NCBI GenBank assembly: GCA_963662985.1
Contig: OY760067.1
Span: forward strand, 1,071,838 to 1,135,837
Length of the DNA stretch: 64,000 bases
Origin: Anaerolineales bacterium
GTDB lineage: Bacteria; Chloroflexota; Anaerolineae; Anaerolineales; UBA11579
Direction of reading: 5' to 3'
Shown piece after piece: positions 1-64,000 of this stretch. Numbering within the stretch: the first letter of the stretch is position 1; every line of letters starts with the position of its first letter. The notes beneath the pieces were generated by a model that saw only the letters and a program-made list of their open reading frames with translations, ran no database searches and was not told the DNA's origin. The position numbers were made by a program, and so were the translations under genes.

Positions 1-676
1 CTGCCAAACCAGCCACAACACCAAGATCATGTGTAATCCAGATCAACGCCATGCCCAATTGATCACGCAAACGTTGCACCAAATCCACAATCTGTGCTTG
101 AATAGTCACGTCCAAAGCAGTGGTAGGTTCATCAGCAATCAACAAAGCAGGGTTACAAGCCAACCCCATTGCGATCATTGCGCGTTGGCGCATCCCACCA
201 GAAAATTGATGAGGATAATCGTCAAGTCTTTGACGTGCTTCAGGAATCCCAACCAAATTCAGCAACTCTTCTGCCCGTTTCATGGCTGCTTCCTCAGACA
301 TCCCCATATGCAATTTCAAGGGTTCGCATAATTGATACCCGATGGTTAAAACTGGATTCAAAGATGTCATAGGGTCTTGGAAGATCATGGCCAATTCACT
401 ACCACGAATTTTTTGCATCTCTTCTTTTGTGAATTGGGTAAGTTCTTTACCTTTGAATTTAATCGATTCCGCCTTAATTTCTGCGGGGGGCTCTTGGAGC
501 AATTTCATCACGGACATCATAGAAACACTCTTGCCGCAACCACTTTCTCCAACAATACCTAAAGCTTCGCCTTCATACAAATTATAAGTGATACCATTTA
601 CAGCATGTACGATACCATCATGGGTGTCAAAAGTTGTACGAAGGTCTTTTATTTCAAGAATCGCCTTTTTTTCCAA
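1..676 (-). CDS. ABC transporter ATP-binding protein, oligopeptide/dipeptide (OppD/DppD) type; C-terminus cut by window edge
   Basis: This ORF is not in the track because it runs off the edge. My - strand translation gives [52 protein letters not shown] (Walker A). Further on it gives [51 protein letters not shown] (signature plus Walker B). The TTG start at 674-676 is preceded by AGGAG at 683-687. Confidence 0.85.
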
Positions 677-915
677 TGTATACTCCTGTTTCGCAAATTC
701 AGCAAAATTTCGCCTCATTTGCTGTTCGGTGTTCTTATTATCAAATCCTTCTATTCTCTTTCATTAATAAAAAATGAGTTGAAAATAAGAAGCCTCTCAT
801 AATAAGATGGTTTATTATAAAACATCTTAGCAATTTTGTCAGTAAGAAAAATCAATATTAATATTTTAAGGTTTCTAAAATAGATGTATAATACTGCATA
901 CGGACAGAAAAACCT

Positions 916-1830
916 ATGGAAAAACTAATAAATGAACCAAAATTCAAACGATTTAGCAAAATTGCAATTGATATCATCCTCGAAACCAATAATCGATTTA
1001 ACAAAAATCGTGCCATCGATGGCGCCGCAGCAATTTCCTACTACGTCGTCTTTTCCATCTTTCCTCTAGTTTCATTACTAGTAGTTCTCGCCGCATCCTT
1101 CTTAGAACCTGATGCAGCCAAAGATTTTGTCTTCAACACCATCCAACAGCTCATCCCCGGCGCGCAAGATGGAATTCTCAATTATATTGAACAAGTTCTC
1201 ATGAACCCTCGCACGCTCTCCATCCCAGCTGGGATTGGTCTCGCTTGGTCTGCCAGTGGAATGTTCACCACACTTGGTATGCAACTCAACCGTGCTTGGC
1301 CAAATGGACAAAGCCGAGGCTTTATTAAACAAAAGATCATTGGCATTGCCATGATCGGCGTGCTTTTTATGATAATGATCTTGTCCCTTTTCAGCACCAC
1401 CCTACTCAAATTTGTGCCTTGGGATAAATTAGTATTTTTAGAGATCATCAACTTTGATCAAGCTAAATTGATTCAAAGCTTTTCTTTCATTATACCTTTT
1501 ATATTAAGAACAATCTTACTTTGGGCACTTTATTACTTTGTACCCAACCAAAACAATGTCATCCCTGGTGCCGCACTCATTGGAGCTACCTTTTCATCAA
1601 TCATTTGGGAGATCACCATCAAATTCTTCACTTGGTATCTCAGTAGCAGTTTCGCTAGATACGAAATTATCTATGGATCTCTTGGATCCATCATCGCCTT
1701 TATGTTCTGGGTCTTTATAATTAGCTATATCTTAATCATCGGGGGCTATTTAGTCGCCACCATCGATCTACACATCAAGAGAAATCGTTTTCCTTCTCAA
1801 ACAGTCAAGAAAGAAGTTTTCCCTGCATAG
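916..1830 (+). CDS. YihY/BrkB family membrane protein
   Basis: This is a 304-aa polytopic membrane protein. The N-terminal block RAIDGAAAISYYVVFSIFPLVSLLVVL is typical of the YihY family. A TGTATAAT extended -10 sits at 885-892. Confidence 0.75.
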   Translation: MEKLINEPKFKRFSKIAIDIILETNNRFNKNRAIDGAAAISYYVVFSIFPLVSLLVVLAASFLEPDAAKDFVFNTIQQLIPGAQDGILNYIEQVLMNPRTLSIPAGIGLAWSASGMFTTLGMQLNRAWPNGQSRGFIKQKIIGIAMIGVLFMIMILSLFSTTLLKFVPWDKLVFLEIINFDQAKLIQSFSFIIPFILRTILLWALYYFVPNQNNVIPGAALIGATFSSIIWEITIKFFTWYLSSSFARYEIIYGSLGSIIAFMFWVFIISYILIIGGYLVATIDLHIKRNRFPSQTVKKEVFPA

Positions 1831-3287: not shown

Positions 3288-4535
3288 ATGAAAAAAAGAC
3301 AACGCCAAACACAAATCCTACTCATAATCATCCTTTTTGTTTTACTCATCGCCACACTGCTCCTCATTCCCCGTACCCGTTCATTTATAGACTGGCAATG
3401 GATTAAAGCAAAAGTTTATATTCAAGATAAGATCAATCCCATCGAAGCTCCTCCCACCCCAAACATAGTGGCCTCATCCACACCACCAGTGCTTCCTACT
3501 TCAACGCTAGCTCCCCCCACCGCTACACCTGATCTCAGCACCCCCACACCGCTTCCCACAGCAACAGCCACACCTCTCCCTCAAAGTGTGCTCATAGATG
3601 CCACCTACCATGAATTTCAAGATATGAATAACTGTGGCCCCGCTTCACTCAGCATGTACCTTCATTACTATGGTTGGCAAGGCGATCAATTTGATGTCTT
3701 TGATTTCACCAAAACAGAACGTGCCGATCGCAATGTTAACATTGAAGAAATGGACTACTTCGTCCGCATGAACGCTGGTTGGCTCACCACTCAATTCCGC
3801 GTGGGTGGCACCATTGATTTACTCAAAAAATTCATCGCCAATGGCATCCCCGTACTCACTGAAACCTCATTCTCCTTTGATGAATCCTACTACTCCAACG
3901 ATGATCGCTGGGCTGGTCACTATCAATATCTCATTGGCTATGATGACAGCATTCAATCCTTCACCATTCAAGATTCCTATTATGGTCCCGACCAAGTTAA
4001 AACCTATCAAGATTTTAAAGATGAATGGCAAAGCTTCAACTACGTCTTTATGCTCATCTATCTCCCCACTCAAGCTGATCTTGTGACTGAGATTCTAGGC
4101 GAATACAACTCCATGGAAGCCAGCCGTAACATTGCTACCAATATTGCACTTAACGAAATTGAACAAGACCCAGAAGATGTGTTTGCATGGTTCAATCTTG
4201 CTACCAATCAAACTTATTTTGAAGAATACGCCACAGCCGCCGACACCTATGATCACGCCCGCTCACTCGGTTTACCGCAGCGCATGTTCCGCTATCAATT
4301 TGGTCCCTTCTTAGCCTATTACCACTCGGGTCGCACCGAAGACCTGCTTGACCTCTTAGACTACGCTCTCCAAGTCACTCCTAATTCAGAAGAAGCCCTC
4401 CTTTGGAAAGGTTGGGCAGAATACCGTCTCGGCAACAGCCAAGCAGCCGTAAACGCATTTTTAGAGGCCTATAAAAACAACAGCAAATCTACAGACGTAC
4501 TCTATGCCTTAGATTACATGGGCATTCCCTATTAA
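3288..4535 (+). CDS. Membrane-anchored peptidase C39-like domain protein with Pro/Thr-rich linker and C-terminal TPR-like repeats
   Basis: An N-terminal TM segment (ILLIIILFVLLIATLLLI) is followed by a PT-rich linker. NNCGPASLSMYLHYYGW is a C39-like Cys motif, with a later WAGHYQYLIGYDD His. The helical repeat tail reads LLWKGWAEYRLGNSQAAVNAFLEAY. Confidence 0.55.
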   Translation: MKKRQRQTQILLIIILFVLLIATLLLIPRTRSFIDWQWIKAKVYIQDKINPIEAPPTPNIVASSTPPVLPTSTLAPPTATPDLSTPTPLPTATATPLPQSVLIDATYHEFQDMNNCGPASLSMYLHYYGWQGDQFDVFDFTKTERADRNVNIEEMDYFVRMNAGWLTTQFRVGGTIDLLKKFIANGIPVLTETSFSFDESYYSNDDRWAGHYQYLIGYDDSIQSFTIQDSYYGPDQVKTYQDFKDEWQSFNYVFMLIYLPTQADLVTEILGEYNSMEASRNIATNIALNEIEQDPEDVFAWFNLATNQTYFEEYATAADTYDHARSLGLPQRMFRYQFGPFLAYYHSGRTEDLLDLLDYALQVTPNSEEALLWKGWAEYRLGNSQAAVNAFLEAYKNNSKSTDVLYALDYMGIPY

Positions 4536-6979: not shown

Positions 6980-7093
6980 AGATTTCCTTATGATTTAATA
7001 GTATTTTTTGATTTTCCTTTGCGGATTCTATCATAAACTTGACATTTATTGTGCGATATAACTTACTTTTTTCATGATTTCATCATTTAAAGG

Positions 7094-7122
7094 TTGATAA
7101 ATAAGAATAAGCCCTTTATAAT
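7094..7122 (+). promoter_or_regulatory. Sigma70-type promoter candidate for rpsA
   Basis: The elements are TTGATA (7094-7099), a 17-nt spacer and TATAAT (7117-7122). GGAG at 7140-7143 precedes the ATG at 7153. Confidence 0.6.
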
Positions 7123-7152
7123 GATAAAATCTATTTATTGGAGTTGTAATTA

Positions 7153-8409
7153 ATGAAACAAGACGAAACCCTCAACGGGAACCCAGAAGTAACACCAGAA
7201 ACAAATGAGAATGAAACAATGTCCATGGAGGCGTTGTTAGCTCAAGAAGAATTTAGTCTTAATGTACCTCGCAAAGGTGAGGTTCGCACAGGTATGATCG
7301 CCAGCGTAAATGGTGATGAAATCCTTGTCAGCATTGGTGCTAAATCCGAAGGCATAATCCCATCTAACGAAATCTCACAACTTAGTGCAGATGAAAAAGC
7401 AAGTTTAAAAGTTGGCAACGAAATTAAAGTTTTAATTGTTAGCCCAGAAAACAAGCAAGGCACCGTGTTGTTATCCTACACACGTGCTCGTGAAGAAGAA
7501 GATTGGGTTGAAGCCGAGAATTTGATGAATGAAAACAAAGACTACGAAAGCAAAGTCGTTGGCTATAACAAAGGCGGCATTTTGGTAGGTTTGGGTTCAT
7601 TACGTGGTTTTGTACCCGCATCACAAGTCAGCTTACTCCGTCGCGCCGAACAAACTGGCCAAACACCAGAAGATCGTTGGGGCAGCATGGTTGGTGAACC
7701 AATCACAGTTCGTGTGATTGAAGTTGACCGCTTCCGCCGCCGCTTGATCATGTCCGAACGCGCAGCTGCAAGCGAATCTCGTGATGAAATCAAATCAAAA
7801 TTGATCACCATGCTCGAAATTGGCGAAACCTACAAAGGTCGCGTCACCAGCATGGCAAACTTTGGTGCTTTCATCAACATCAATGGTGTTGATGGCTTGG
7901 TCCACCTCTCAGAACTTTCCTGGGAACATGTGAACCACCCCAAAGATATCCTCAAGATTGGTCAAGAAGTCAACGCCAAAGTCATCAACATTGATGAAGA
8001 AACAAAACGTGTTGGTCTTTCCATTCGTTTGACAGAAAAAGACCCCTGGATGGAGAAAATTTCTGAATATCGCAATGGCCAATTGGTCGAAGGTGAAATC
8101 ACTCGCCTCACAAAATTCGGTGCATTCGCAAAAGTGGAAGACAACCTCGAAGGGTTGATCCATGTTTCCGAATTGAGCGACGCTCGAGTTGAACACCCCA
8201 AAGAGATCCTCGCAGTGGGTGACAAACTCACCTTGCGCATCATCAAGATCGACAAAGAACAACGTCGCTTAGGCCTCAGCTTACGCAAAGTTGACTCACT
8301 TGCTTATAACGACCTTGACTGGCAAATCGCTTTGGAAGATGTAGACGGTATCAATGTAACCCCTGCAGCAACCGAAGAAGAAAACGAATCTCCCGAAGCA
8401 GAAGCATAG
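7153..8409 (+). CDS. rpsA: 30S ribosomal protein S1
   Basis: This 418-aa protein has four repeated S1 motifs, for example GRVTSMANFGAFININGVDGLVHLSELS and GEITRLTKFGAFAKVEDNLEGLIHVSELS. Confidence 0.9.
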   Translation: MKQDETLNGNPEVTPETNENETMSMEALLAQEEFSLNVPRKGEVRTGMIASVNGDEILVSIGAKSEGIIPSNEISQLSADEKASLKVGNEIKVLIVSPENKQGTVLLSYTRAREEEDWVEAENLMNENKDYESKVVGYNKGGILVGLGSLRGFVPASQVSLLRRAEQTGQTPEDRWGSMVGEPITVRVIEVDRFRRRLIMSERAAASESRDEIKSKLITMLEIGETYKGRVTSMANFGAFININGVDGLVHLSELSWEHVNHPKDILKIGQEVNAKVINIDEETKRVGLSIRLTEKDPWMEKISEYRNGQLVEGEITRLTKFGAFAKVEDNLEGLIHVSELSDARVEHPKEILAVGDKLTLRIIKIDKEQRRLGLSLRKVDSLAYNDLDWQIALEDVDGINVTPAATEEENESPEAEA

Positions 8410-8462: not shown

Positions 8463-8636
8463 TTAACAGAACACTAAAGTAAAAAGCTTCTCCATGAAAC
8501 ACTCTATTATGTATTAACATTGCATAGGAACTTATTAAATTAACACTAAGTATCCCTTTCACATCAAATACTTTTTGGTAGAATCTTAATATGCAGAATT
8601 GGATTTATTTTTATTATTCAAGAAATGGAGGGTACC

Positions 8637-11150
8637 ATGTCAAATAAAGACAAACTAACCCAACGCGCCCGAAAAGTGCTCGCCATTGCGCATCAAGAAG
8701 CTGAGCGCATGAATCACAGCACTATTGGTAGTGAACACTTACTCATTGCCCTCATCCTAGATCAGGGAGGTGTCGCCTCACGTGTCTTATCAGATCTCGA
8801 TATCGAACTAGAACGTGTTCGCGAACTTGCCGAACTACTCAACAAACCCGGAGAAACGACTCCGCAAAGCATTGATCTTGGCTCCAGCACCCAAACCATC
8901 ATCCGTCTAGCCTATCAACAAGCAGAAGAACTCGACAGCGATGTGGTCAGCACAGAACACATCTTGCTAGGCTTAGTTGAATACCGCGATGGCATCGCCA
9001 TGAGCATTCTCCGTCGTATGGGCATCAACGAAGAAACCGTACGTCATCAAATTCGCAAAACATTACAACAAAGCTCCTCATTCCAAAGCGAACACAAACC
9101 CATCGAACGTCTTCCTCGCAAAGCACAAGCTGGATCCAGCAAAAAGAATGAAAAGACACCTCTTGTCGATCAATTAGCCACAGACCTCACCGCAAAAGCT
9201 CTCGAAGGCAAACTAGACCCTGTCATCGGCCGTCAAAAAGAGATCGAACGTGTCATTCAAGTGCTTGCCCGTCGCTCCAAAAACAACCCCGCCCTCATCG
9301 GCGAACCAGGTGTTGGCAAAACCGCCATCGTAGAAGGACTAGCCCAACGAATTATCGAAGGCGACGTTCCCTCACTTTTGGCAGACAAAAAAGTATTACA
9401 ACTAGATGTTGCTTCATTGCTCGCAGGCACCATGTACCGCGGTCAATTTGAAGAACGCCTCAAAAGAGTCATTGACGAACTCAAAGTATCAGAATCAATC
9501 CTCTTCATTGACGAAGTCCATATGATCGTTGGTGCCGGTGCAGGTGGCTCCTCAGTAGACGCCGCCAACATCCTCAAACCAGCCCTCTCTCGTGGAGAGC
9601 TTCAAGTCATTGGCGCTACAACACTAGATGAATACCGAAAAAACATCGAAAAAGATGCCGCTCTCGAACGACGTTTCCAACCCATCACAGTTGAAGAACC
9701 GTCCGAAGAAGAATCCATTGAGATCCTCAAAGGCATCGTAGACTCCTACGAAGAACATCACCGCCTCAACATCTCAGAAGAAGCCCTTGAAGCAGCCGTC
9801 AAACTCTCTTCACGCTATATCAGTGATCGCTTCCTGCCCGACAAAGCCATCGACCTCATCGACGAAGCATCCTCACGCGTACGCATGTACAAAAGCGACA
9901 ACGCCAAAATCACCAAAGAACTCACGCAACAACTTAAAAAAGTACGAGATGAGCTCATCATCGCCATTGAAGAAGATCAAGAAGCAAAGATCTTTAGCTT
10001 AGAAGAAAAAGAACGTGAAATAGACGAACAACTCAACGAATTCAAAGCAACCTGGGATCGCGCCACAAGCCCCACAGTCAGCAAACAAGACATTGCAGAA
10101 TTAATTTCCATGTGGACAGGCATTCCTCTCACTCAACTCGCGCAAGAAGAATCTGAAAAATTACTCAACTTGGAAGAAGAATTGAAAAAATCAATTGTTG
10201 GCCAAGAAGAAGCTATTTCCACCATATCAAAAGCAGTTCGTCGTGCTCGCGCAGGGCTCAAAGACCCACGCCGTCCAGTTGGTTCCTTCATATTCTTAGG
10301 ACCCACCGGCGTTGGTAAATCAGAACTCACCAAAGCGCTCGCTCGCCTCATGTTTGGTTCAGAAGACGCCCTCATCCAAATAGACATGTCCGAATTTATG
10401 GAACGTCACAACGTCAGCCGACTCACTGGTGCTCCTCCAGGTTATGTGGGCTACGAAGAAGCTGGGCAACTCACCGAAGCCATTCGACGTCGTCCTTATT
10501 CCATCGTAGTCTTTGATGAAATTGAAAAAGCACACCCTGAAGCACACAACATGCTCCTTCAGATCATGGAAGAAGGTCATCTTTCCGATTCATCTGGTCG
10601 CAAAGTAGACTTCCGCAACGCCATCATCATCATGACTTCCAACGTTGGTGCAGAGATGATTATCAACCAAACCAATGCTGGCTTTAACATCAAACGTGAT
10701 GAAGTCTTAGAAGAAAAACTTGCCTATCAAGATATGCAAAAGAAACTCAGCAATTCTCTCAAGCGAGTTTTCCGTCCAGAATTCATCAACCGTGTAGACA
10801 ACGTCATCGTCTTCCGCTCCTTGAGCAAACAAGATATTGAAGAGATTGTCCAAATTGAACTCGACAAAGTCTCAAACCGCTTAGTAGAAAACGACATCAC
10901 CATCAACTACACACCTGACCTTGTCTCATGGATTGCAGAAATTGGCTATCAAAAAGAATATGGCGCTCGCCCCATCAAACGTGTCATTCAAAGCCATGTA
11001 GAAGATACCCTCTCAGAGGCACTTCTCGCTGGAGAATTTACAGATGGTGACACCATCCTTCTTGATGTAACAAAAAATGATGAAGGTGAAAAACAAGTTG
11101 CCTTCACTCATGCAGAAACAACAGAAGAACCATTAGGTGAACCTATCTAA
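8637..11150 (+). CDS. clpC: ATP-dependent Clp protease ATP-binding subunit ClpC
   Basis: The protein has Clp_N repeats (TIGSEHLLIALI and VSTEHILLGLV) and two AAA modules (GEPGVGKTAIVEGLA and FLGPTGVGKSELTKALA). The ORF track starts at 8625. The ATG at 8637 is preceded by GGAGG at 8627-8631, so I prefer it. Confidence 0.9.
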   Translation: MSNKDKLTQRARKVLAIAHQEAERMNHSTIGSEHLLIALILDQGGVASRVLSDLDIELERVRELAELLNKPGETTPQSIDLGSSTQTIIRLAYQQAEELDSDVVSTEHILLGLVEYRDGIAMSILRRMGINEETVRHQIRKTLQQSSSFQSEHKPIERLPRKAQAGSSKKNEKTPLVDQLATDLTAKALEGKLDPVIGRQKEIERVIQVLARRSKNNPALIGEPGVGKTAIVEGLAQRIIEGDVPSLLADKKVLQLDVASLLAGTMYRGQFEERLKRVIDELKVSESILFIDEVHMIVGAGAGGSSVDAANILKPALSRGELQVIGATTLDEYRKNIEKDAALERRFQPITVEEPSEEESIEILKGIVDSYEEHHRLNISEEALEAAVKLSSRYISDRFLPDKAIDLIDEASSRVRMYKSDNAKITKELTQQLKKVRDELIIAIEEDQEAKIFSLEEKEREIDEQLNEFKATWDRATSPTVSKQDIAELISMWTGIPLTQLAQEESEKLLNLEEELKKSIVGQEEAISTISKAVRRARAGLKDPRRPVGSFIFLGPTGVGKSELTKALARLMFGSEDALIQIDMSEFMERHNVSRLTGAPPGYVGYEEAGQLTEAIRRRPYSIVVFDEIEKAHPEAHNMLLQIMEEGHLSDSSGRKVDFRNAIIIMTSNVGAEMIINQTNAGFNIKRDEVLEEKLAYQDMQKKLSNSLKRVFRPEFINRVDNVIVFRSLSKQDIEEIVQIELDKVSNRLVENDITINYTPDLVSWIAEIGYQKEYGARPIKRVIQSHVEDTLSEALLAGEFTDGDTILLDVTKNDEGEKQVAFTHAETTEEPLGEPI

Positions 11151-12488: not shown

Positions 12489-14132
12489 ATGGAAAAACAC
12501 ATAACAAAAAGAATCCTTTTAATTGAAAACAACCAAATATATCTTGAATTGATTGAAAATTCCCTCAAACAAGCAGGTTTCAAAATCAAAAATGCTGAAA
12601 CAGCATCTGAAGGATTACGTTATATGGATGATTTTAAGCCACATGTCATCCTCCTCAACGAAGATCTCCCCGATCTTTCCGGCAAAGACCTCATTGTTGC
12701 CCTCCGCTCCAATGGATATGAAAACCCCATCATCGTCATCTCAGATGACCTTCTCACCTCCGAAGCCATCCAATATTATCGCCTCAGCGCCTCGGATTTT
12801 ATCATCCCCCCCTATCGAGAAGCAGAGATTATCAACATCGTAGAACGAGTCTTAACCCAATCCAGCTACCTAGAGGAGCATCAAACCCAAACCCTACACC
12901 TCAATCAAAACATCAATGCCCTCAAGAAAAACATCAACGATCTCTCCATCGTCTTAGCCATTCAAAAAACATTTGAACTCCTTTCCAATGAATGTAAAAT
13001 CGTAGAATTTATGTATCGCGCCCTAAGTCGATATTTTAATACCTCAACCAGCTATATTGTCAGCATCGACGAAAAACAAAAATTCAGCCTCCAATTTAGC
13101 ATCGGTCTCGAAGTTTTTTCAACCAACACCCCCAATCAAGAATGGCACGATCTTTTCACCAACTACCTTTTTTTAGCCAAAGAACCCCTCATAATCAACA
13201 ACAACGAAAATCTCAAAAAATATAAATTAGACAATATTGGCAAAACAGCCCTTGGCTACCCCCTTGTTATCAACGAGCAACTAAAAGCCATCTTTGTATT
13301 CATCCGAAAAAATGGCGAAAATTTCAACAACGAAGATCTCCGCTTTATTAATCTCATCGCCGATCAAGCCATCTCAAACATAAATAACCTCACCGTCAAA
13401 AAGAAGCTCAAACAACGCACCCAAGATAAAAAATATCTTGAAAAGCGTCTTAATCTTCTCATTCAAGAAAACCAAAAGACCCATCATCGCCTCACCAATG
13501 CCATTGAGCCTCATCTTGCCCAAAATCAAATTTCTCTTTTTGAGCTCAAATCAAATCCCCATATCGATAACGAACGCATTGACTCCCTCCTAGACAATCT
13601 CCTTGAAATCGAAAAAAACATCAAGCTCTCCAAGCTCAACTTTGAATATCTTAATAATCTCTCTCTTCAAGAGGTCTGCCTCAACAATCTTTTAGAAGAA
13701 CTCATCGCCCCCTATGGGCAAGAAAACGTACTCTTTGTCTATGCTGAAGAACACAACCTCTACATAGCAGACAAAGAAGGAACCATTGAGCTTGTCATCG
13801 CAGAATTATTAGAAATCTCGCTCAAACACAAAGCGCACAAACCCATCGTCGTCAAATTAGAAACAACCAAAAACAATTTCGCCAAAGTCAGCTTCCTCAA
13901 CCCCAACAAAATTATCGACTACGAAGCCATGCTCATGCTCTTCAATCCCCTCTACGAAAAAGAAGTTCTTCCCCTTCCTTCTGAATCTGAGATTGAAGAA
14001 AGACAAAAAACTTCTACATTAAAACAAATTATTTACTTAAATCAAGGTCTCATCTGGGCAGAAAAAACCTTAGCGCAAGGCAATTCAATTCACCTCACGA
14101 TTCCTTTGTCGGTTGATTCATTTTCCAAATAA
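12489..14132 (+). CDS. Degenerate receiver domain plus histidine-kinase-like protein (pseudo-receiver/pseudo-kinase)
   Basis: The N-terminal CheY-like fold is recognisable, but the acidic pocket is EN (LLIENN). The phospho-acceptor position is N (VILLNEDLPDLSG) and the conserved Lys position is P (DFIIPPY). The C-terminus keeps an H-box-like HHRLTNAI and an N-box-like ELLEISLKH. I see no DxGxG/GxGxG ATP-lid motifs. Confidence 0.6.
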   Translation: MEKHITKRILLIENNQIYLELIENSLKQAGFKIKNAETASEGLRYMDDFKPHVILLNEDLPDLSGKDLIVALRSNGYENPIIVISDDLLTSEAIQYYRLSASDFIIPPYREAEIINIVERVLTQSSYLEEHQTQTLHLNQNINALKKNINDLSIVLAIQKTFELLSNECKIVEFMYRALSRYFNTSTSYIVSIDEKQKFSLQFSIGLEVFSTNTPNQEWHDLFTNYLFLAKEPLIINNNENLKKYKLDNIGKTALGYPLVINEQLKAIFVFIRKNGENFNNEDLRFINLIADQAISNINNLTVKKKLKQRTQDKKYLEKRLNLLIQENQKTHHRLTNAIEPHLAQNQISLFELKSNPHIDNERIDSLLDNLLEIEKNIKLSKLNFEYLNNLSLQEVCLNNLLEELIAPYGQENVLFVYAEEHNLYIADKEGTIELVIAELLEISLKHKAHKPIVVKLETTKNNFAKVSFLNPNKIIDYEAMLMLFNPLYEKEVLPLPSESEIEERQKTSTLKQIIYLNQGLIWAEKTLAQGNSIHLTIPLSVDSFSK

Positions 14133-14875: not shown

Positions 14876-15610
14876 TTACAGTTCATATCCCATCTTGATG
14901 ATTTCGTCACCAAATTTTTCTTCACAAAGAGCCAATTGTGTTGGGGTCATTTCAGTTCGGAATCGTTCTGGCTCTCCCTTATAAAAATGTAATCCGCGCA
15001 CATCTTCAGCACTTTTATTCGAAGCATATCTTCCGATCACTTCCAAAGTGCTTTGTGCCTCAGGATCAACGTCTAAGAAATCTACAATCTTCATTGCTTC
15101 AGCTTCATAATCAGCCAAAATATCTTCAAACCGCTGCACCAAAACACCTTCTTTTGCAGACCATTCTTTCCAGATATCCACATAAACAGCAATGAAATCA
15201 ATAGCCTTTTCAATCGTAGTCAAATCCGTAAACGCCTTATTCTTCATCCCTTGTGCGAGCTTGCTCATTCCAAAATTATGAGCAGATAAAGCAGCAGCAC
15301 GAGGATCACGATACACATATAAAGACTTTGCCAAACCTAATCTACTAATCAGGTCGTAAAATCTAGTCGACCCAGAATGGGTTTTAATTACAACATCATC
15401 TTTTATAGTATACGGTAATAAAGGAATCACGCGCTTATAGTTCACGATTCCTATATTACAATTCACCTCAGTCAAAATATGTTGATTCAATTTATTCTTA
15501 TTCCGAATATCAAGGGAAACTTTTCCGCCATTGCTAACAACCAAATCATGAATCAAACGATAATGCCTTGCTGAGCCCGCTCGAGGCATTCCAACAGCTA
15601 GATATAGCAT
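14876..15610 (-). CDS. Sulfotransferase family protein
   Basis: The 5'-PSB-like loop is GMPRAGSARHY and the 3'-PB-like motif is LYVYRDPRAAALS. The protein is 244 aa. Confidence 0.7.
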   Translation of the reverse strand: MLYLAVGMPRAGSARHYRLIHDLVVSNGGKVSLDIRNKNKLNQHILTEVNCNIGIVNYKRVIPLLPYTIKDDVVIKTHSGSTRFYDLISRLGLAKSLYVYRDPRAAALSAHNFGMSKLAQGMKNKAFTDLTTIEKAIDFIAVYVDIWKEWSAKEGVLVQRFEDILADYEAEAMKIVDFLDVDPEAQSTLEVIGRYASNKSAEDVRGLHFYKGEPERFRTEMTPTQLALCEEKFGDEIIKMGYEL

Positions 15611-15728: not shown

Positions 15729-15944
15729 ATGAAAAAACTATTTAGTTTCCTTGTAGGTGCAATGATGGGCGCTTTGGTCGGCAGCACAGCCGCCATCCTC
15801 CTAGCACCATCATCCGGAGATGACTTGCGCGACGAATTAGTTCAACGGGTAGAAAACTTCAAAAATGACATCATCGCCGCATCAGATAACAAACGTATCG
15901 AACTCGAAACGCAACTAGCCAATCTCAGGAACCCCAATGCTTAA
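15729..15944 (+). CDS. YtxH domain-containing small membrane-associated protein
   Basis: This 71-aa protein begins FLVGAMMGALVGSTAAILLAPSSGDDLRDEL, followed by a helical tail. Confidence 0.7.
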   Translation: MKKLFSFLVGAMMGALVGSTAAILLAPSSGDDLRDELVQRVENFKNDIIAASDNKRIELETQLANLRNPNA

Positions 15945-17341: not shown

Positions 17342-17428
17342 CTCTTCTCTCCTAAATTGGTTTTTCTTTATAGACAACAAAAACTAGACCTCTCCTACTC
17401 TGAGTTTTAAGAGAGTCTTTAAGAAAAT

Positions 17429-17447
17429 ATTCAATTGCCTATTGAAT
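17429..17447. promoter_or_regulatory. Inverted repeat ATTCAAT-N5-ATTGAAT upstream of dnaA
   Basis: The perfect 7-bp arms lie at 17429-17435 and 17441-17447, about 90 nt upstream of the dnaA ATG. The function is unknown. Confidence 0.3.
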
Positions 17448-17581
17448 TTTGATAATCCTAAATCAAAACATCGCCCTGCCTTGATTATCTCATCATGGAT
17501 ATATTTTACAACAACTAATTTTTACCTTCAACAAACAAGTCCCCAAAAAAGTTAAAATTAACCAATTTTTTAAGAATTACC

Positions 17582-17616
17582 ATTGTTAAAAAATTAAGAA
17601 CAAATTGTTAAAAAAT
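17582..17616. repeat. Two direct copies of ATTGTTAAAAAAT (AT-rich 13-mers)
   Basis: The copies lie at 17582-17594 and 17604-17616, inside the 490-bp AT-rich non-coding region next to dnaA. Confidence 0.6.
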
Positions 17617-17818
17617 AACACAATTTTAAATGTAAATTCCCCTTACAATTATTGTATGAAACAAATGGACACTCCCATATATGGTACATAAACACTTATT
17701 TAATCTAAAAACCCCACATATGGGGGCATTAAATTTTGTAAAAAAATTAATAAAATTAAAATTAACTTTTGTCAACCAGTCAAAGCTTTACCCCTTTTTT
17801 TAAAAAATAATCAAATTC

Positions 17819-17868
17819 TTTAACGTTTAAATTTGTTTTAATCCGGATTAATTTTTTTAACGTTTAAA
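17819..17868. repeat. Symmetric array: TTTAACGTTTAAA, perfect palindrome TTAATCCGGATTAA, TTTAACGTTTAAA
   Basis: The 13-mer occurs at 17819-17831 and 17856-17868. The 14-bp palindrome sits at 17838-17851. A related TTAAACGTT occurs at 18754-18762, on the other side of the 17873-18658 gene. Confidence 0.6.
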
Positions 17869-17872
17869 AAAA

Positions 17873-18658: not shown

Positions 18659-18800
18659 GCGTTAATAACACCTTTTCAATCTTCCCTTATACTCTTCCAC
18701 ATAAATTATAGTCGAAGACCTTCTTCATCTACCTTTCTCTTTTGAAAGCTAAATTAAACGTTTTTTAATAAAAATAAATTGTTTAAATGTTATCTAAACG

Positions 18801-18834: not shown

Positions 18835-18853
18835 CTATATGAAATTCATTAAA

Positions 18854-22851: not shown

Positions 22852-22861
22852 AGAATCAATC

Positions 22862-44593: not shown

Positions 44594-44603
44594 TTATTAT
44601 ATT

Positions 44604-54949: not shown

Positions 54950-55806
54950 TCCATGTTTTCTTCATAGCCCAACCGAACCACGAGATCCCCAGCTTCTTCT
55001 TTAAAAACGTGTTTATTTTCTTCTGTGAACGCTTCTTTCCAACCACCCGGTTGGCCTTTTCGGAACGTACCTGATTTTTTCGGTTGCACTGCTGCATGCA
55101 TCGAAGCAATTGCTTCTTCATCGCTGGTCATCAATACCAACCCGCGTCCCTTCAAAAATTCCAAAATCCGCACAAATGTTGCATCTCGATCCAAGATCAA
55201 ATCTTCAAATTTCACTGGCAACACATTTGGTAAATTAATCCAACCTGCATAGCCATCATAACGCACTTTGATCGAAGAAATTCCATATAACTCATCATCA
55301 ATCCCACGAATGGCCGCATTAATCCGCGCTTCATCCGTATCAAATTTTTCATTGTAATATAGATGCAGATGATGATCTTCCTTCATATAAGTTGCATATT
55401 GTACTTGCGATACCACCACATCTCGAGGATCACGATAAAGGAAAAAGAGTGAATATTTATCTTGTCCTAATTCAGCTAAAAAGTCGGGCTTAGATTTTAA
55501 ATAACCATACGCCACATCCCCTGCGTTCAACTCATGTAATCGAGCTAATTTGTCTTGATCATCTCGCATTTTCAAATTATTTTCAGCGCGATTAATCGGC
55601 GGATAACCACTGTCAATCAATGGACTAACTGCAATTACCCCATCAATCACTTGAGTAAGCAAATGAGATCCAGCCTTAGGTATGGAATTAACAATAATAA
55701 TTGGTTGCGAGTCCAAAACTTTTTTTCCAAATCTCCGCGCAGAGTTCAACCGCCGTACTTGCCATCGCGCTTTTTTGAAAATTCTTTTTAATTCATAATA
55801 CGCCAT
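54943..55806 (-). CDS. Sulfotransferase
   Basis: The 5'-PSB loop is NSIPKAGSHLL and the 3'-PB motif is FFLYRDPRDVVVSQ. The gene overlaps its neighbours by 7 nt and 1 nt. Confidence 0.8.
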   Translation of the reverse strand: MAYYELKRIFKKARWQVRRLNSARRFGKKVLDSQPIIIVNSIPKAGSHLLTQVIDGVIAVSPLIDSGYPPINRAENNLKMRDDQDKLARLHELNAGDVAYGYLKSKPDFLAELGQDKYSLFFLYRDPRDVVVSQVQYATYMKEDHHLHLYYNEKFDTDEARINAAIRGIDDELYGISSIKVRYDGYAGWINLPNVLPVKFEDLILDRDATFVRILEFLKGRGLVLMTSDEEAIASMHAAVQPKKSGTFRKGQPGGWKEAFTEENKHVFKEEAGDLVVRLGYEENMDW

Positions 55807-57431
55807 TAGGAAATTCCACCTTGCTCATAAAATTTATCAACCGGCCGTTCAAACGATTCACCCTGCAAAATCCCAGCTTGAATTCGCTTCATCACCTTGC
55901 TGTTTTCTGATTTTAACGCCTTTGCATCAAAATCTTTCAACACCACATAGCCATCGGTCGGATGTGCTTTCAAATAATCCGCAAACGACTGAGATAAATG
56001 ATGATTTTGGTAATACACATATCGCAATGCATTCTCATAGAATACATCTGGCGTATCAATTTTCTCTTCTCTAAAAAATTTCTCCACCATTGCCAAATGT
56101 GCGTCTCGGCTCTCCGGCACAAACACCGTCTCATATCCCGTATAACGCGATTTCCCCGCACTAATCACAGGCACTCGCATTAGGCTGCCTTCCAATCCTA
56201 TAGAAGAATTATACACCAGCACAAACTTTGCTTGCAGCATTAAAGCATAAGAACTCACATACTCATTGCTATTAATAAACACCACATTCTCTTTTTCCAA
56301 CAGCCCTTGCGCTTTCACCCAATCCGCCACCGATTCCAACGAGCGTTTTCCTTCGCGTAATTCATCCGGATGTGCTCGCAGCACAAACAACACCTCTGGA
56401 TGTGCTTCAATCATCTCTCTAATATCTTCCAACCACGCAAACATATCCGCATAAATCACGTTCGCATGCATCTGGCTCGTATCAAAAATCACATTCGTAA
56501 ACACTGGCACCATCGCTTCATGTGCTTCAATCTTCGCCAGCAGTTCTGCATCCAACCCCTGCATATCTTTCCAAAATGTAATCCCCGCCATCGTGAAATC
56601 GCCCTGAAAGCGCTTCTTCAAATACGCCTGAATCGTCTCACGTTGTTCTTGGGTCAATTCAAAATCAGCCGGCATTGCCGTCGGATAAGCGGTTGCTTCT
56701 CCCGCCACAAAAAAGCCAGAAAATGGTTCAAAGCCCACTTCATGCGTCACCACTCGAATCCCCTGTGCTTCCGCAAAATAGCGCACCACTGCTTCCGGAT
56801 AGGAGGTCCCATTAAACACCACCACCGCTTGTGGTTGAATCCGCGCCAACGCAAGTTCCGCCTGTTGTCCCAACGCCACCGCTGAAACCAAAAAATCTGC
56901 AAACACCCCCCGCGTATCCGCATCGTCTAATAAGTTATGTCGTCGCAAACGCCAGCGCACCGCCGGCAGCACCATCGCCCCATAAGGCACATCGTCCACC
57001 ACCACATCGCTCAATTCGTCCACACTCTTCGTTGCCAATTCACTCGTCAAAGTTTCATCAAAGCCATCTTCCAACCACACCACTTCATCTGCTCCCGCAA
57101 ACAAGCGCTCTGATTGCGCCACACATGCTTCGCATGGCATCGGCTTATTCAAATCATTCAAATCCAAACCCAACACACATCTCTTCATCCCTCTTCGGCA
57201 AGCCATCTGCACCACGCGCACGCCATCCATCCCCAAGCTCCACGCCACCAATTGCTGGAAAGCGGCATTCAAGCTCATCCCATAGATCCGCGTCGACGCA
57301 TTAAATAACACCACCGTTCCCTTTGCAGCGTCTTTTTCCACCGCCTTGGCTTGTTTCGCCAACTGCGCCATCCGCCAGCGATTCTCCACCGTATTCAATT
57401 TCACTTTCACAGCATCAAACATCATTCGCAT
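55806..57431 (-). CDS. Capsule-synthesis-like protein (KpsS/KpsC-type, putative CMP-sugar-dependent transferase)
   Basis: VVVFNGTSYPEAVVRYFAEAQGIRVVTHEVGFEP, FVLRAHPDE and FVLVYNSSIGLEGSLMRVPVISAG resemble the Capsule_synth pattern (from memory; not searched). Confidence 0.45.
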   Translation of the reverse strand: MRMMFDAVKVKLNTVENRWRMAQLAKQAKAVEKDAAKGTVVLFNASTRIYGMSLNAAFQQLVAWSLGMDGVRVVQMACRRGMKRCVLGLDLNDLNKPMPCEACVAQSERLFAGADEVVWLEDGFDETLTSELATKSVDELSDVVVDDVPYGAMVLPAVRWRLRRHNLLDDADTRGVFADFLVSAVALGQQAELALARIQPQAVVVFNGTSYPEAVVRYFAEAQGIRVVTHEVGFEPFSGFFVAGEATAYPTAMPADFELTQEQRETIQAYLKKRFQGDFTMAGITFWKDMQGLDAELLAKIEAHEAMVPVFTNVIFDTSQMHANVIYADMFAWLEDIREMIEAHPEVLFVLRAHPDELREGKRSLESVADWVKAQGLLEKENVVFINSNEYVSSYALMLQAKFVLVYNSSIGLEGSLMRVPVISAGKSRYTGYETVFVPESRDAHLAMVEKFFREEKIDTPDVFYENALRYVYYQNHHLSQSFADYLKAHPTDGYVVLKDFDAKALKSENSKVMKRIQAGILQGESFERPVDKFYEQGGIS

Positions 57432-60748: not shown

Positions 60749-62188
60749 TTACTTTCCTTGCACCAAGCTCAATAAATATTCACCCGTACGGCGCCCAGCG
60801 CTCCCATCGGTGAACGTACATTCATCTTCAATAAATTTTTCTTGTGCGGCCGCATCATGGGTCGGATTTTGCAAATACAAATTCAACGTATCCTTCAAAC
60901 TTTCTTTGTCCAACACCACCGTACCCGCCTTCGCTTCAATAAAGCGTCGGTGTGTTTCCCAATCCGAAATTTCCGACAACGGCAAATAGAAATTCTCCGT
61001 CCAGCCCACCTCATGGTCAATACACTCCGCAATAATCGGCGTGCGATGAATCGCCGTTTCCACCACCATCGTAGAATACACCGTCACAAACACATCCGAG
61101 TGCGCCATCATCGACGTCTTCTCTGGCATATCTTCCCCAGAATAATGGCCCAATTCGCCCCCCAAGGCCACCGGTTCCACCAAATGCACATGTGGCATCG
61201 TCTTCACCATCTCCCGCACTGCTTCACGTTCCGCCGCAAAGCGTCCCGTATTCATAAAATGGTTCGGGTGCAAACGCACCAACAATTGGCTCGGTTCTGC
61301 CAAAGCATCCTCATTCACCAATTCGGCCAATGCCTCAATATTCTGAATATTTGGCGAAAAGCTCACAAAACTGCTTGCATAAGAAATCAACTTCCGCGTA
61401 GAGTCCAAGCCATGCAATTCAAAATACTCTTCCTTCGGCATTACCCATTCATTCAAAAAATATCCATCATAAGAGGGGATCCCGCCAATATTCACCTTCT
61501 TTGGGTCCCAATCCGACCCCAACACCAATTCTTGCTTCTGCAATTCAGACCAACACGTCGCATAATCCATGTCCGCCCCACTCAAATTATACGAACAAGA
61601 ATTATCCCATCCCACAATCACAGTCGTAGTAGTAATTCCACGTGCTGCCGCTTCTCGCAACAAATACTTATCAAAGCGCCAACCCGGCGTACTCGCCACC
61701 ACCATCTCTGGTTCATATTTTTCAAACAAATCATCATAGAGATGTGGCACAAACTGTCGTTGCATGCTTTGCATCAACTTACGCGCCAACTTCGAATAAT
61801 GCATCACCGTCACCGCCAGCTTCATCACCGGCATCAACAGCTTGCGTTTCCCCGTCGCTTCCACTTGCACCTGCTCAATATAATTCTCCACCGGCACCAA
61901 ATTAATCTTATGGGAGGCCCCCGCTCGGCGCAAAAAATCCAACCAAAATTGCATCGAAGGTTTATAGGAATTAAAATAATCTCTCGCTTCTTTAATCCGC
62001 AAATCTTCCACAATCAAGCCTTCTTGACCAAAACGTGCCTCGATCTGTTCTTTCAACACCGCATCCGTCAACAAAACCACACGCACCCCACCCTCAATCA
62101 TTGTTTTCACCACATCGCTTTGCAAAAAATAAACGATCGCCAACCCATGATCTGCACTAATAAAAACAGTCTTTTGTTTATCCGTCAT
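60749..62188 (-). CDS. Hypothetical GT-B-like polysaccharide biosynthesis protein (distantly similar in pattern to the 55806-57431 product)
   Basis: LLVRLHPNH and SDVFVTVYSTMVVETAIHRTPIIA follow the same pattern as FVLRAHPDE and FVLVYNSSIGLEGSLMRVPVISA. I cannot name a family with confidence. Confidence 0.4.
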   Translation of the reverse strand: MTDKQKTVFISADHGLAIVYFLQSDVVKTMIEGGVRVVLLTDAVLKEQIEARFGQEGLIVEDLRIKEARDYFNSYKPSMQFWLDFLRRAGASHKINLVPVENYIEQVQVEATGKRKLLMPVMKLAVTVMHYSKLARKLMQSMQRQFVPHLYDDLFEKYEPEMVVASTPGWRFDKYLLREAAARGITTTTVIVGWDNSCSYNLSGADMDYATCWSELQKQELVLGSDWDPKKVNIGGIPSYDGYFLNEWVMPKEEYFELHGLDSTRKLISYASSFVSFSPNIQNIEALAELVNEDALAEPSQLLVRLHPNHFMNTGRFAAEREAVREMVKTMPHVHLVEPVALGGELGHYSGEDMPEKTSMMAHSDVFVTVYSTMVVETAIHRTPIIAECIDHEVGWTENFYLPLSEISDWETHRRFIEAKAGTVVLDKESLKDTLNLYLQNPTHDAAAQEKFIEDECTFTDGSAGRRTGEYLLSLVQGK

Positions 62189-62199
62189 TCCATCATCCT

Positions 62200-63165
62200 C
62201 TAATTTCGATACAATATCTCAAAGCTCTTATCATAGACCTTCTGCACCAACTTACGCAACGGTCCCCTTTGCCAAATGCTAGGCTTCTTCACAACTTGTG
62301 TCCCTGCTTCTTTCGCATCCAACAAGTCCTCTTCCAGCAAAAATCCCTTCACTGGCACCGTATTCCCCATATGTTGCACATACCACTGATCCAAGCACAA
62401 CCGCAAATAGCCCGCCGCATTGATCGCTTCATCCAACAAACGCACTTGCCCCATCGGACGGTTCGACGCGATCGGTGTCATCTCGCGCAACACATCCGTG
62501 CGCGCCACAAACTGAAAATGCGAAGCCCCAATGAAATAATGTTTCCCTTCATAGCTCACCCGCAAACTGTCATTCTCTTGCATAAAAGCCCGTGCCTTTT
62601 CCTCATCGCCCCCCAAGCTAATCGCATGTCGCCAAAAATCTTCCCATGCAAAATCATAGCCCCGTTCCAGCAAACCATTTTCTTCTGCCCAAGTCACTGT
62701 CGCCGTAGAAAATTTCTCCGGCGTCATCATCGGCATCCCCGTCACCATTCCCAACTTCGGGAAGGTCTTCAATGCATCCACCTGTGCCGTCAACCATCCT
62801 TCATAATGATAGACATCGCTGTCCGCAAACGCCACAAATTCACCCGGTGCCGCACGGAACATAAAGTTCCAAGCGCCAGCCTTGCCCACATTCTTATCAG
62901 ACAAAACCAAATAGTCAATTTTGCCCGCTTCATGCAATTCATTCAAATACGCCCGCACTTCCGGGCAGCTCGCATTGTCAAACACCATCAAATCAAATTC
63001 CATCTGGGTATTCTTCAAAATGCTCCCCAAGCACAACTTCAACACATCCAAACTCTCTTCATAGTACCCCCCGATCATTGGAATATAGGTCACCACCGCC
63101 ACCGTCACCGGCGCAGGTTGCACCACATCTTGCATTGCTTTTGCAGGGTTTTGTCCAACGCGCAT
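62200..63165 (-). CDS. Glycosyltransferase family 2-like
   Basis: VTVAVVTYIP...FDLMVFDNASCPEV...FADSDV shows a GT-A DxD-type arrangement. Confidence 0.7.
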   Translation of the reverse strand: MRVGQNPAKAMQDVVQPAPVTVAVVTYIPMIGGYYEESLDVLKLCLGSILKNTQMEFDLMVFDNASCPEVRAYLNELHEAGKIDYLVLSDKNVGKAGAWNFMFRAAPGEFVAFADSDVYHYEGWLTAQVDALKTFPKLGMVTGMPMMTPEKFSTATVTWAEENGLLERGYDFAWEDFWRHAISLGGDEEKARAFMQENDSLRVSYEGKHYFIGASHFQFVARTDVLREMTPIASNRPMGQVRLLDEAINAAGYLRLCLDQWYVQHMGNTVPVKGFLLEEDLLDAKEAGTQVVKKPSIWQRGPLRKLVQKVYDKSFEILYRN

Positions 63166-63173
63166 CAGTCCAC

Positions 63174-64000
63174 CTATCCTCTACTTAAATTTCGTTTACG
63201 TTTCTGTCGCAGCATTCTGGTCAATCGCCATTGTAGCGTAGTATCAATCGGGCGATTGGGGGTCAACCAACGCTCAATTCGGCGCCAAAATCGCATCCAT
63301 GAGAAGTGTGGCCACACCACCTTCCCCTCTCGCAATTCTCGGTTGGTGTCCAACACCAAATACATATTACGTGTCCCGCCGCCTTTTTGTTCATTAATTC
63401 GGGATTCCGGCAATGTATAATGTTTCTGTCCCCCCTGCAAATGATGATAATCATGGTTCTGGTGCACAATGTCAATCGCAAACGTGCCATCAATCGTCGG
63501 CCACGTTTCCGTCACACCTTTCCAAATCATCCAATTATCCCATCCAGCACGCCCCACCGTGAAATCAGGAATATCCTCCATCACATTATTCGACAGCAAA
63601 AAATAATCACTCCCCGTCGGCTTATGTAGCACACCTTCAGTTTGCATCTTCTCTCGCAAACGTGTTTCCCATCCATCTGAAAAGTCCACCAATTCGGTCA
63701 CATCCACATCATAGCGTTGTCCCACCACCATAAACTTTTCATGTTGCGCCGCCACATCTCGCGCCGCCTGAATCATATCTGGGAAAATCAAAATGTCCGC
63801 ATTCAAATACAAAATCACATCGCTGTCAAAAGCCTCACGCCCAATCTTGAACAACGAGCTAATATAAGGAATCCCCTTCTCATTGCTCTCCACTTCCTTA
63901 ATGTGTGTCACCCCATATTCAGCCGCAACTTCCGCCATCCCCTCTTCATCGCCAATCATCACCACATTCACATCTTCGCCAAATTGCGCCCAATTTCGAA
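63174..64000 (-). CDS. Hypothetical glycosyltransferase-like protein, 5' end beyond the window
   Basis: The track starts at a GTG at 63971, but the frame stays open to 64000 (...RNWAQFGEDVNVVMIGDEEG). The block VILYLNADILIFPDM is GT-A-like. The family is not recognised. Confidence 0.4.
   Translation of the reverse strand, partial: RNWAQFGEDVNVVMIGDEEGMAEVAAEYGVTHIKEVESNEKGIPYISSLFKIGREAFDSDVILYLNADILIFPDMIQAARDVAAQHEKFMVVGQRYDVDVTELVDFSDGWETRLREKMQTEGVLHKPTGSDYFLLSNNVMEDIPDFTVGRAGWDNWMIWKGVTETWPTIDGTFAIDIVHQNHDYHHLQGGQKHYTLPESRINEQKGGGTRNMYLVLDTNRELREGKVVWPHFSWMRFWRRIERWLTPNRPIDTTLQWRLTRMLRQKRKRNLSRG

Follow-up and report, generated by a model that had tools for sequence, protein, structure and literature searches.

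A 64-kb stretch from the main chromosome of an uncultured member of the Anaerolineales (Chloroflexota), which carries the gene dnaA, was analysed for strand asymmetry; this whole stretch (positions 1-64000) is hereafter called the window. Its plus strand is G-poor over almost its entire length, whatever the orientation of the genes. Comparison with relatives that retain the same gene order indicates that this skew is young and graded within a genus-level clade, and this is the main new result of the work. The source chromosome is about 2.4 Mb long, as judged from an InhA-like protein of the window that has a 100% identical match on a contig of 2,366,799 nt, and about 3% of the genome was covered.

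Base composition and codon usage of the window and its relatives

The plus strand of the window contains 19216 A, 18581 C, 16618 T and 9585 G (fractions.30,.29,.26 and.15, respectively), with a G+C content of 44.0%, a GC skew of -0.319 and an AT skew of +0.073. Measured as in the SkewDB paper, (G-C)/N amounts to -0.14, against a typical effect of ~0.025 given there. A negative GC skew was found in 63 of 64 one-kb windows, with a minimum of -0.54 at 42-43 kb. The sole non-negative value (+0.03) belongs to positions 7001-8000, within the plus-strand gene rpsA. The GC skew of rpsA at codon positions 1, 2 and 3 is +0.40, -0.01 and -0.48; the exception is therefore due to G-rich first positions that offset the third-position skew, and it is not an inversion. 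At 4-fold degenerate sites, the GC skew of the minus strand reaches +0.76, with ~7 G per C at neutral sites, and the TA skew is -0.01 (mean of both gene orientations), so that T equals A. The asymmetry is almost wholly one of G versus C. A first-pass annotation made from the sequence had described the plus strand as C/A-rich and G-poor irrespective of gene orientation, and the overall skew, the one-kb windows and the third positions of both gene sets agree with this description. It had also called the minus strand G+T-rich; "G-rich" suits this strand better.

A curated set of 56 genes was used for the codon analysis, of which 12 are located on the plus strand and 44 on the minus strand. Most of them are supported by Pfam and six have no Pfam match. 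A capsule-like gene (55806-57431) gave only a sub-threshold match, a small YtxH gene was accepted on the gene calls of relatives, and an OppD-like fragment was accepted on its translation. The G-rich strand holds 79% of the genes (44/56) and 81% of the coding bases. The majority on the minus strand reported previously is thus real, and its size, given as 45 of about 58 genes, is replaced by the curated count.

Expressed in plus-strand terms, the third-position GC skew is -0.69 for plus-strand genes and -0.61 for minus-strand genes, which gives ~0.65 for the component due to the strand and ~0.04 for that due to coding sense. The fraction of G+T at third positions (GT3) ranges from 0.24 to 0.40 in the former and from 0.60 to 0.78 in the latter, with zero overlap, so that the per-gene check against strand proposed in the first-pass annotation separated the two sets fully. 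The codon tables of both sets also agree with the strand-specific choice claimed there for four amino acids. Minus-strand genes use TTG for 72% of Leu, GTG for 78% of Val, GAT for 83% of Asp and ACG for 42% of Thr; plus-strand genes use CTC (51%), GTC (46%), GAC (47%) and ACC (60%), respectively. The codon strings that had been quoted as examples are present in the sequence at 26298, 62188 and 17341. Note that one tRNA pool is shared by the two gene sets, yet their synonymous codons are opposite.

The strand component and the coding-sense component of the skew were separated by comparing the same orthologous codons in co-oriented and counter-oriented genes. At third positions, the strand component was 0.64-0.69 and the coding-sense component was -0.02 to -0.08. 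The corresponding values were 0.12-0.14 and +0.26 to +0.27 at first positions, and 0.01-0.04 and -0.19 to -0.22 at second positions. First codon positions were G-rich in the coding sense in every genome compared (coding component ~+0.26). The asymmetry is a mutational pressure filtered by protein selection: its strength is greatest at 4-fold sites, declines at first positions and vanishes at second positions. This codon-position profile rules out transcription and translational selection as the source of the skew.

The loci of relatives were reached via DnaA homologs, and their gene order is the same as that of the window. The window's DnaA shares 98% identity with the DnaA of an Anaerolineales metagenome-assembled genome, CAXXOS010000001.1, a contig of 1.50 Mb. 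The lowest skew was found in the loci L004:1-18970 and L005:1-6825, which come from two separate assemblies (Logan SRR35213552 and SRR35213523). Their DnaA is 81% identical to that of the window, the third-position strand component is 0.00, the G+C content is 37.5% and the locus GC skew is 0.03-0.05. The locus L003 (BORC21-1_SAMN14087008; DnaA identity 87%) has a strand component of 0.48-0.52, a G+C content of 41% and a locus GC skew of 0.15. The window itself, with the strand component given above, a G+C content of 44% and a locus GC skew of 0.32, is close to L001, L006 and L010 (DnaA identity 98%), for which these values are 0.67-0.69, 42-45% and 0.29-0.39. The highest strand component (0.85) was found in L011:1-3939 (Logan SRR24635347; 3.9 kb only), with a DnaA identity of 89%, a G+C content of 47.6% and a locus GC skew of +0.43. 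The strand component is thus graded among the relatives and rises with G+C, which points to a recent, lineage-specific shift of the substitution pattern. The coding-sense component is constant across the relatives; therefore, only the strand component has changed.

The loci L004 and L005 have the gene order and gene orientations of the window without its skew and serve as the zero-skew control of the clade. When identical 4-fold codons were compared, the GC skew of the presumptive leading strand was -0.20 and +0.06 in L004 versus +0.58 and +0.88 in the window (leading-strand and lagging-strand genes, respectively). The strand skew was repeated in independent ENA and Logan assemblies (L001/L010, L006, L011). 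In three more distant Anaerolineales dnaA loci, the third-position strand component was -0.08 to +0.06. The distances from the window at 4-fold sites are 0.32 for L001, 0.54 for L003 and 0.67 for L004, with full randomisation at ~0.75, and therefore the change of regime dates from within about one synonymous-site turnover. In this clade, a strand-biased pattern of substitution with this direction and size has arisen recently. Rooting on DnaA alone gave 6 sites versus 5, and the tree ((window, L001/L006), L003), L004 is favoured by 4-fold-site and protein distances. A search with the leftmost and the rightmost protein of the window joined into one query returned only relatives with 35-51% identity and no orthologs.

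In addition, the locus L002:1-8014 of a distant relative (Anaerolineaceae; DnaA 58% identical) has a G+C content of 51% and a skew of +0.19, and its five open reading frames (ORFs) are all in one orientation. Given this locus, in which the strand and coding components are inseparable, the order may have acquired strong skew on more than one occasion.

The composition of the proteins is affected as well. Compared with their orthologs in L004, the genes of the presumptive leading strand differ by +2.0% in Val and -2.2% in Ile, and those of the lagging strand by +1.2% in Asn and -0.7% in Asp. The skew leaks into proteins as a shift from Ile to Val in minus-strand genes and from Asp to Asn in plus-strand genes.

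A further consequence concerns stop codons. TGA occurs 612 times on the plus strand versus 2197 times on the minus strand, i.e., it is 3.6 times rarer on the plus strand. Stretches of 100 or more codons that lie antisense to genes and contain no stop amount to 19.7 per 10 kb on the plus strand versus 5.3 on the minus strand (3.7 times denser on the plus strand), as anticipated by the first-pass annotation, which had mentioned very long stop-free antisense ORFs there. The longest of them (475 codons, 60776-62200, plus strand) is a by-product of the G-poor strand and no gene; the plus-strand ORF at 60842-62203 has no Pfam match. The second-longest (418 codons, 62164-63417, plus strand) lies opposite a GT2 gene (62200-63165, minus strand; Pfam Glycos_transf_2), and the plus-strand ORF at 62269-63420 has no Pfam match either. 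The same result was obtained for all plus-strand antisense ORFs tested with Pfam.

Substitution process and its possible causes

Base frequencies at 4-fold sites were read on the G-rich strand, as the mean of the two gene orientations. In the series L004, window, L011, the frequency of G rises from.15 to.49 and.75, and those of A (.38,.22,.06), C (.17,.07,.03) and T (.30,.22,.16) fall. The locus L011, with G at.75 versus C at.03, exceeds the window in skew. Between L004 and the window, G increases at the expense of A, C and T, and purines rise from 53% to 71%, which means that transitions alone are insufficient. Substitutions were then polarised on the sister tips L001 and L006 with the window as the outgroup. 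At synonymous sites of the G-rich strand, C>T was found at 0.090 per C versus 0.036 per G for G>A (ratio 2.5, p = 5e-4). In the recent tips, G>A (42) exceeds A>G (25), as expected near equilibrium. Taken as a whole, the comparison indicates a build-up of G on the presumptive leading strand, derived from A and probably also from T, together with a loss of C. A deaminase-like context signature was also considered and rejected: C is most depleted after T and C, but this pattern is confounded by the avoidance of CpG and TpA and by the preferred codons GGC and CGC.

The ratio (G/A)/(C/T) grows from 0.7 in L004 through 4.4 (L003) and 7.1 (window) to ~10-11 for the L001 species. At an equilibrium of transitions only, this ratio equals the product of two strand biases. 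The implied bias per transition class is 2.1-3.3-fold from L003 to the L001 species and ~2.7-fold for the window. Such a bias per class is within the laboratory range; therefore, no exotic process is needed, only strand-biased errors that remain uncorrected or undiluted.

We consider it likely that a replication-strand bias has been strengthened by a spectrum of substitutions in which replication errors prevail. In the genus-level clade, the substitution spectrum would have been taken over by strand-biased replication errors. The leading-strand sequence would gain G from A and, with thinner support, from T, which corresponds to misinsertion of C in lagging-strand synthesis; the lagging-strand template has the leading-strand sequence. 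Loss of C by C>T would be more frequent than loss of G by G>A, and a bias of ~2.5-3 fold in both gain and loss would suffice for the observed G:C ratio. The trigger could be a lost or weakened fidelity function, namely mismatch repair, proofreading or the balance of the deoxynucleoside triphosphate (dNTP) pool. In mismatch-repair-defective E. coli, transitions are 2.44 and 2.34 times commoner with A and C on the lagging-strand template, and the spectrum is dominated by A:T>G:C (10.1101/346874). According to the same work, an excess of dCTP adds misinsertion of C opposite A and T, mostly in lagging-strand synthesis. The rise of G+C together with the skew is in keeping with a spectrum in which A:T>G:C prevails and is at odds with cytosine deamination. 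We suggest only tentatively that one lost fidelity function turned a zero-skew genome into the most skewed bacterial chromosome known.

Several observations weigh against an origin in replication errors. The synonymous rate of A>G (0.043) versus T>C (0.028) gives a ratio of 1.55, which is not significant (p = 0.12), and the excess of T>G over A>C is a thin count (10 vs 1 events over all sites, p = 0.03). Polarised transition rates normalised over all sites look symmetric; they were set aside because most bases are constrained, so that the denominators are wrong, and the synonymous-only version shows the asymmetry. The 5'-NAC-3' hotspot of mismatch-repair-defective E. coli was not reproduced: the shift of the A/G ratio was smallest in the AC context (1.9-fold) versus 4.4-5.1-fold in other contexts. 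This hotspot may be specific to the E. coli polymerase. The locus L011 needs a bias of ~7.6-fold per transition class, which is above any measured bias (519 sites). The intergenic skew of the window (-0.22) is far below the skew at 4-fold sites. Finally, no skew switch, origin or terminus was found in the 64-kb window, the link to replication being drawn by analogy, and none of the three was found in the L001 species at contig positions 295.6-317.0 and 323.1-345.1 kb (~43 kb).

Among the alternatives, the classical one is deamination of single strands, in which C>U and A>hypoxanthine changes accumulate on the exposed lagging-strand template through lost ung/nfi repair or long exposure, an explanation that has been put forward for Borrelia and the mitochondrial H strand. 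It gives the right polarity, with G over C on the gene-rich strand, and it agrees with the C>T rate on the G-rich strand being 2.5 times that of G>A per site; the composition of the plus strand is also near that of the human mitochondrial L strand. However, G+C climbs from 37.5% to 47.6% with the skew, where a decrease would be expected from deamination chiefly of cytosine. There is no enrichment of T at 4-fold sites (TA skew -0.01), and deamination can produce neither the purine rise from 53% to 71% nor the excess of T>G over A>C. Besides, a methylpurine/hypoxanthine glycosylase gene is intact at ~27870-28499. We regard deamination as an unlikely explanation. A change in the mode of replication was considered as well, namely the absence of replichore polarity owing to one-directional, grossly asymmetric or strand-displacement replication with a long-lived single strand, and with dnaA uncoupled from the origin. 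In that case, the same extreme skew would be found on one strand around most or all of the circle. The constant sign over 64 kb and over the ~43 kb sampled from the related species, the lack of DnaA boxes beside dnaA and a skew as large as in mitochondria are in line with it, and ~100 chromosomes have arms that differ at least 3-fold in length (SkewDB paper). Against it, only ~3% of the genome was seen, and dnaA commonly lies within 5% of the skew shift, which is ~118 kb here and extends beyond the window. In addition, the magnitude is already accounted for by a 2.5-3 fold bias per class, so that a new mode is unneeded. Such a change appears very improbable, and the loss of a fidelity function is the more likely of the two.

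An origin of the skew in transcription or translation, through shared gene orientation, a base preference of the coding strand or codon selection, could be argued from the co-orientation of 79% of the genes and from first positions that are G-rich in the coding sense (~+0.26). It is contradicted by the plus-strand genes, which share the absolute polarity of the others (-0.69 vs -0.61), and by the size of the coding-sense component at third positions (only -0.02 to -0.08). Moreover, opposite synonymous codons are used with a shared tRNA pool, and the same gene orientations are accompanied by zero skew in L004. Skew coupled to transcription is refuted, since the sign does not follow gene direction, and the broader explanation is hardly credible. 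As for an artefact of assembly or sequencing, nothing speaks for it beyond the fact that the sequences are metagenome-assembled genomes. It is ruled out by the full-length Pfam matches of ~50 ORFs, by the dependence of the skew on codon position and by the same skew in independent ENA and Logan assemblies; the chance that it accounts for the data is negligible.

The dnaA region and other features of the window

The dnaA gene (15986-17341, minus strand; 451 aa; Pfam Bac_DnaA, Bac_DnaA_C and DnaA_N) starts with ATG at 17341, in agreement with P0001, P0003 and P0004, and has a third-position skew of -0.65 in plus-strand terms. Around it, at 16-19 kb, the one-kb skew is -0.27 to -0.31. A sign change at 17.4-17.9 kb, which would have spoken against the first-pass annotation, was found neither there nor elsewhere in 1-64000. 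Its statement that the polarity is the same on both sides of dnaA, with no switch at the gene, is accurate on the scale of the window, and one skew sign was also found on both dnaA flanks in L001 and L006. Any skew switch is located at a distance of over 46 kb on the upstream side of dnaA and over 16 kb on its downstream side. In E. coli, oriC is located ~42 kb from dnaA, and the Caulobacter origin is likewise not beside dnaA. The window resembles these bacteria in that dnaA presumably lies inside one replichore, without a switch at the gene, and the distance is of the same order. According to the SkewDB paper, slightly more than 80% of chromosomes have dnaA no farther than 5% from the skew shift. 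For ~2.4 Mb, 5% corresponds to ~118 kb, and therefore the missing switch at dnaA is no anomaly. The position of dnaA is ordinary, and a distance of more than 46 kb is not exceptional.

The rule that the leading strand has G over C, the location of 79% of the genes on the G-rich strand and the asymmetry of substitutions allow us to assume that the minus strand is the leading one, that the fork runs from high to low coordinates and that the whole window belongs to one replichore. The origin would then not be beside dnaA; it would be located more than 46 kb beyond it on the upstream side. This agrees with the replication-strand signature proposed in the first-pass annotation, with the minus strand leading and a single replichore, insofar as the strand component, the gene bias and the C>T excess fit it; we infer the tie to replication from these features.

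An AT-rich spacer of 492 nt (17381-17872; 25% G+C, skew -0.32) is located upstream of dnaA. It contains a 37-nt tandem direct repeat at 17795-17868 (family D19; two copies, 73% identical), which adjoins a hypothetical gene (17873-18658). No cluster of DnaA boxes was found near dnaA, as the region 16327-19127 contains no match to TTATCCACA with at most one mismatch, the search being made with the E. coli-type consensus only. In the whole window, 34 matches to TTATCCACA with at most one mismatch were found versus 20.5 expected, and no shuffle reached 34; 22 of the 34 are on the plus strand, and no clustering was seen anywhere in the window. The motif TTATCCACA is rich in C and A like the plus strand, yet the shuffles already preserve base and dinucleotide content. 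No parS site was found in the window; the single match with three mismatches is at chance level. No genome-specific repeats usable as probes were found in the window.

The content of the window is that of chromosomal housekeeping (dnaA, pheST, rpsA, clpC, miaB, coaX and a split metH) with a long cluster for polysaccharide synthesis and sulfation. At the left edge, a gene for an OppD/DppD-like ABC-transporter ATPase (1-750, minus strand) is cut by the boundary of the window. It is followed by several genes of the plus strand, the presumptive lagging strand, that are supported by Pfam: a BrkB/YihY-family gene (916-1830; third-position skew -0.55, GT3 0.40), a Peptidase_C39_2/TPR gene (3288-4535; -0.64), rpsA (7153-8409; four copies of Pfam S1), clpC (8625-11150; Pfam Clp_N, AAA_2 and ClpB_D2-small) and a response-regulator/GAF gene (12489-14132; -0.73). 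The clpC gene, with a third-position skew of -0.69 and a GT3 of 0.29, uses codons ending in C or A.

A sulfotransferase gene (14876-15610, minus strand) lies between coaX and dnaA and has one of the weakest third-position skews (-0.39) of the window. L004 also has this gene, and it is missing at that position from L001, L006, L003 and L011. The small YtxH-family gene (15729-15944, plus strand) has counterparts with Pfam YtxH called at the corresponding position of L003, L004, L006 and L011, and its identity to these copies by tblastn is 66-90%.

The minus-strand block at 17873-26143, on the presumptive leading strand, consists of a hypothetical gene, pheT, pheS, an SLT gene, a second hypothetical gene and MsrQ-like and MsrP-like genes, as judged with Pfam; its third-position skew is -0.36 to -0.73 and its GT3 is 0.64-0.74. 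A T-box leader (Rfam RF00230, 95.7 bits) was found upstream of pheS-pheT at 22489-22738 on the minus strand. The next block (26298-29043, plus strand, presumptive lagging strand), also assigned with Pfam, comprises two HAD-family genes (26298-27011 and 27109-27840), the gene for a methylpurine-DNA glycosylase (~27870-28499) and a bactofilin gene (28579-29043), with a third-position skew of -0.73 to -0.81 and a GT3 of 0.24-0.29. The two HAD-family hydrolase copies form a tandem duplicate with 71-80% nucleotide identity over the detected repeated segments.

An ORF of 338 aa without a Pfam match (31474-32490, minus strand) has a G+C content of 24%, and of 20% at third positions. By composition it has a foreign appearance; nonetheless, it shows the local skew (third-position value -0.59). 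Two further plus-strand genes were identified with Pfam, one for an HxlR-type regulator (34669-35043; third-position skew -0.73) and one with an FHA domain (38864-39553; -0.58). Between them, MetH is split into two ORFs (35077-38593, minus strand), an 898-aa main body and a 296-aa activation domain, which overlap by 71 nt. The split is called equally in the L001 species (L010:16862-20366).

The remaining part of the window (39625-63971) is occupied by an unbroken run of 24 minus-strand genes, including PNP and the polysaccharide synthesis and sulfation cluster, assigned with Pfam. Their third-position skew is -0.44 to -0.78, and one-kb skews go down to -0.54. Three tandem InhA-like/MAM paralogs of 669-684 aa (40434-46658, minus strand) have the strongest skew in the window (~-0.5), and the skew at their first codon positions goes down to -0.63 to -0.70. 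Between two InhA-like copies of the L001 species (L010:7877-14996), there are a small helix-turn-helix gene and a 141-aa ORF on the opposite strand.

Comparison with known systems and significance

The GC skew of the coding sequence was divided into replication-associated and transcription-associated components in the notation of PMC2031905, and these were 0.299 and 0.045 in the window. The comparison was made with a part of Table S1 of that work (185 chromosomes), which excludes the Clostridia. In these rows, the replication-associated component is 0.141 for Borrelia afzelii (whole-sequence skew 0.189), 0.100 for Bacillus cereus and 0.096 for the phylum average of Spirochaetes; Dehalococcoides, the only representative of Chloroflexi in the table, has a value of 0.043. 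A survey of 7738 assemblies revealed Borreliaceae as the most extreme bacterial outliers (PMC6042203). The skew of the window is about twice that of Borrelia on these measures.

Like Borrelia, and also Treponema pallidum, Chlamydia and Lawsonia, the window has an asymmetry that does not depend on gene orientation, with more G than C along the leading strand and the strongest effect at third positions. In both cases, codon usage sorts the genes by strand, amino acids are affected and the majority of genes are on the leading strand. The window differs from Borrelia in that T is not enriched at 4-fold sites and the G+C content is moderate (44%). Moreover, the organism is, as far as known, not a reduced pathogen, and it has a relative of the same gene order without skew. 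The assignment by the first-pass annotation to the signature of Borrelia, Treponema and Chlamydia is thus right in kind, whereas the degree is different (0.30 vs 0.141 for Borrelia afzelii).

The clade was also compared with mismatch-repair-defective mutation-accumulation lines of E. coli and Pseudomonas (Lee et al. 2012; Foster laboratory, 10.1101/346874). The transition bias of ~2.4 times and the dominance of A:T>G:C in these lines, by which G+C is driven up, appear to have the same direction as the change in the window clade, and the A:T>C:G changes that excess dCTP adds by placing C opposite T would match it in direction too. The difference is that laboratory spectra are compared here with an equilibrium composition, and the NAC hotspot is absent in the clade.

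Vertebrate mitochondrial DNA, with its A+C-rich L strand and G+T-rich H strand, is nearly equal to the plus strand of the window in composition and similar to it in the size of the GC skew, and it likewise shows one polarity over a long distance. The mitochondrial pattern is ascribed to deamination in a long single-stranded phase and is T-enriched, whereas T is not enriched in the window. Moreover, the case described here is a bacterial chromosome of megabase scale with dnaA, in which G+C rises with the skew. No report of extreme skew in Anaerolineae or Chloroflexota was found in full-text literature searches. The asymmetry of the window is of the same kind as the known replication-strand asymmetry; its size, the contrast of G versus C without enrichment of T at a moderate G+C, and the switch-on within a clade of unchanged gene order set it apart.

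A skew of this strength has practical consequences, as it creates many long false ORFs on the G-poor strand and two gene sets that differ in codon usage and amino acids. False ORFs and split composition can mislead gene callers, the detection of horizontal transfer and binning by composition.

The cause of GC skew in bacteria has been debated since 1996, with deamination of exposed single strands, asymmetry of polymerase errors, repair and selection as candidates. Here, one genus-level clade spans the full range at neutral sites, from no asymmetry up to a G:C ratio of more than 20:1, with G+C in step. A comparison of repair, replication and dNTP-pool genes across the clade, together with population spectra of single-nucleotide polymorphisms, could point to the function behind GC skew. 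If the skew did follow from the loss of a fidelity function, the clade would be a natural experiment able to identify a determinant of GC skew.

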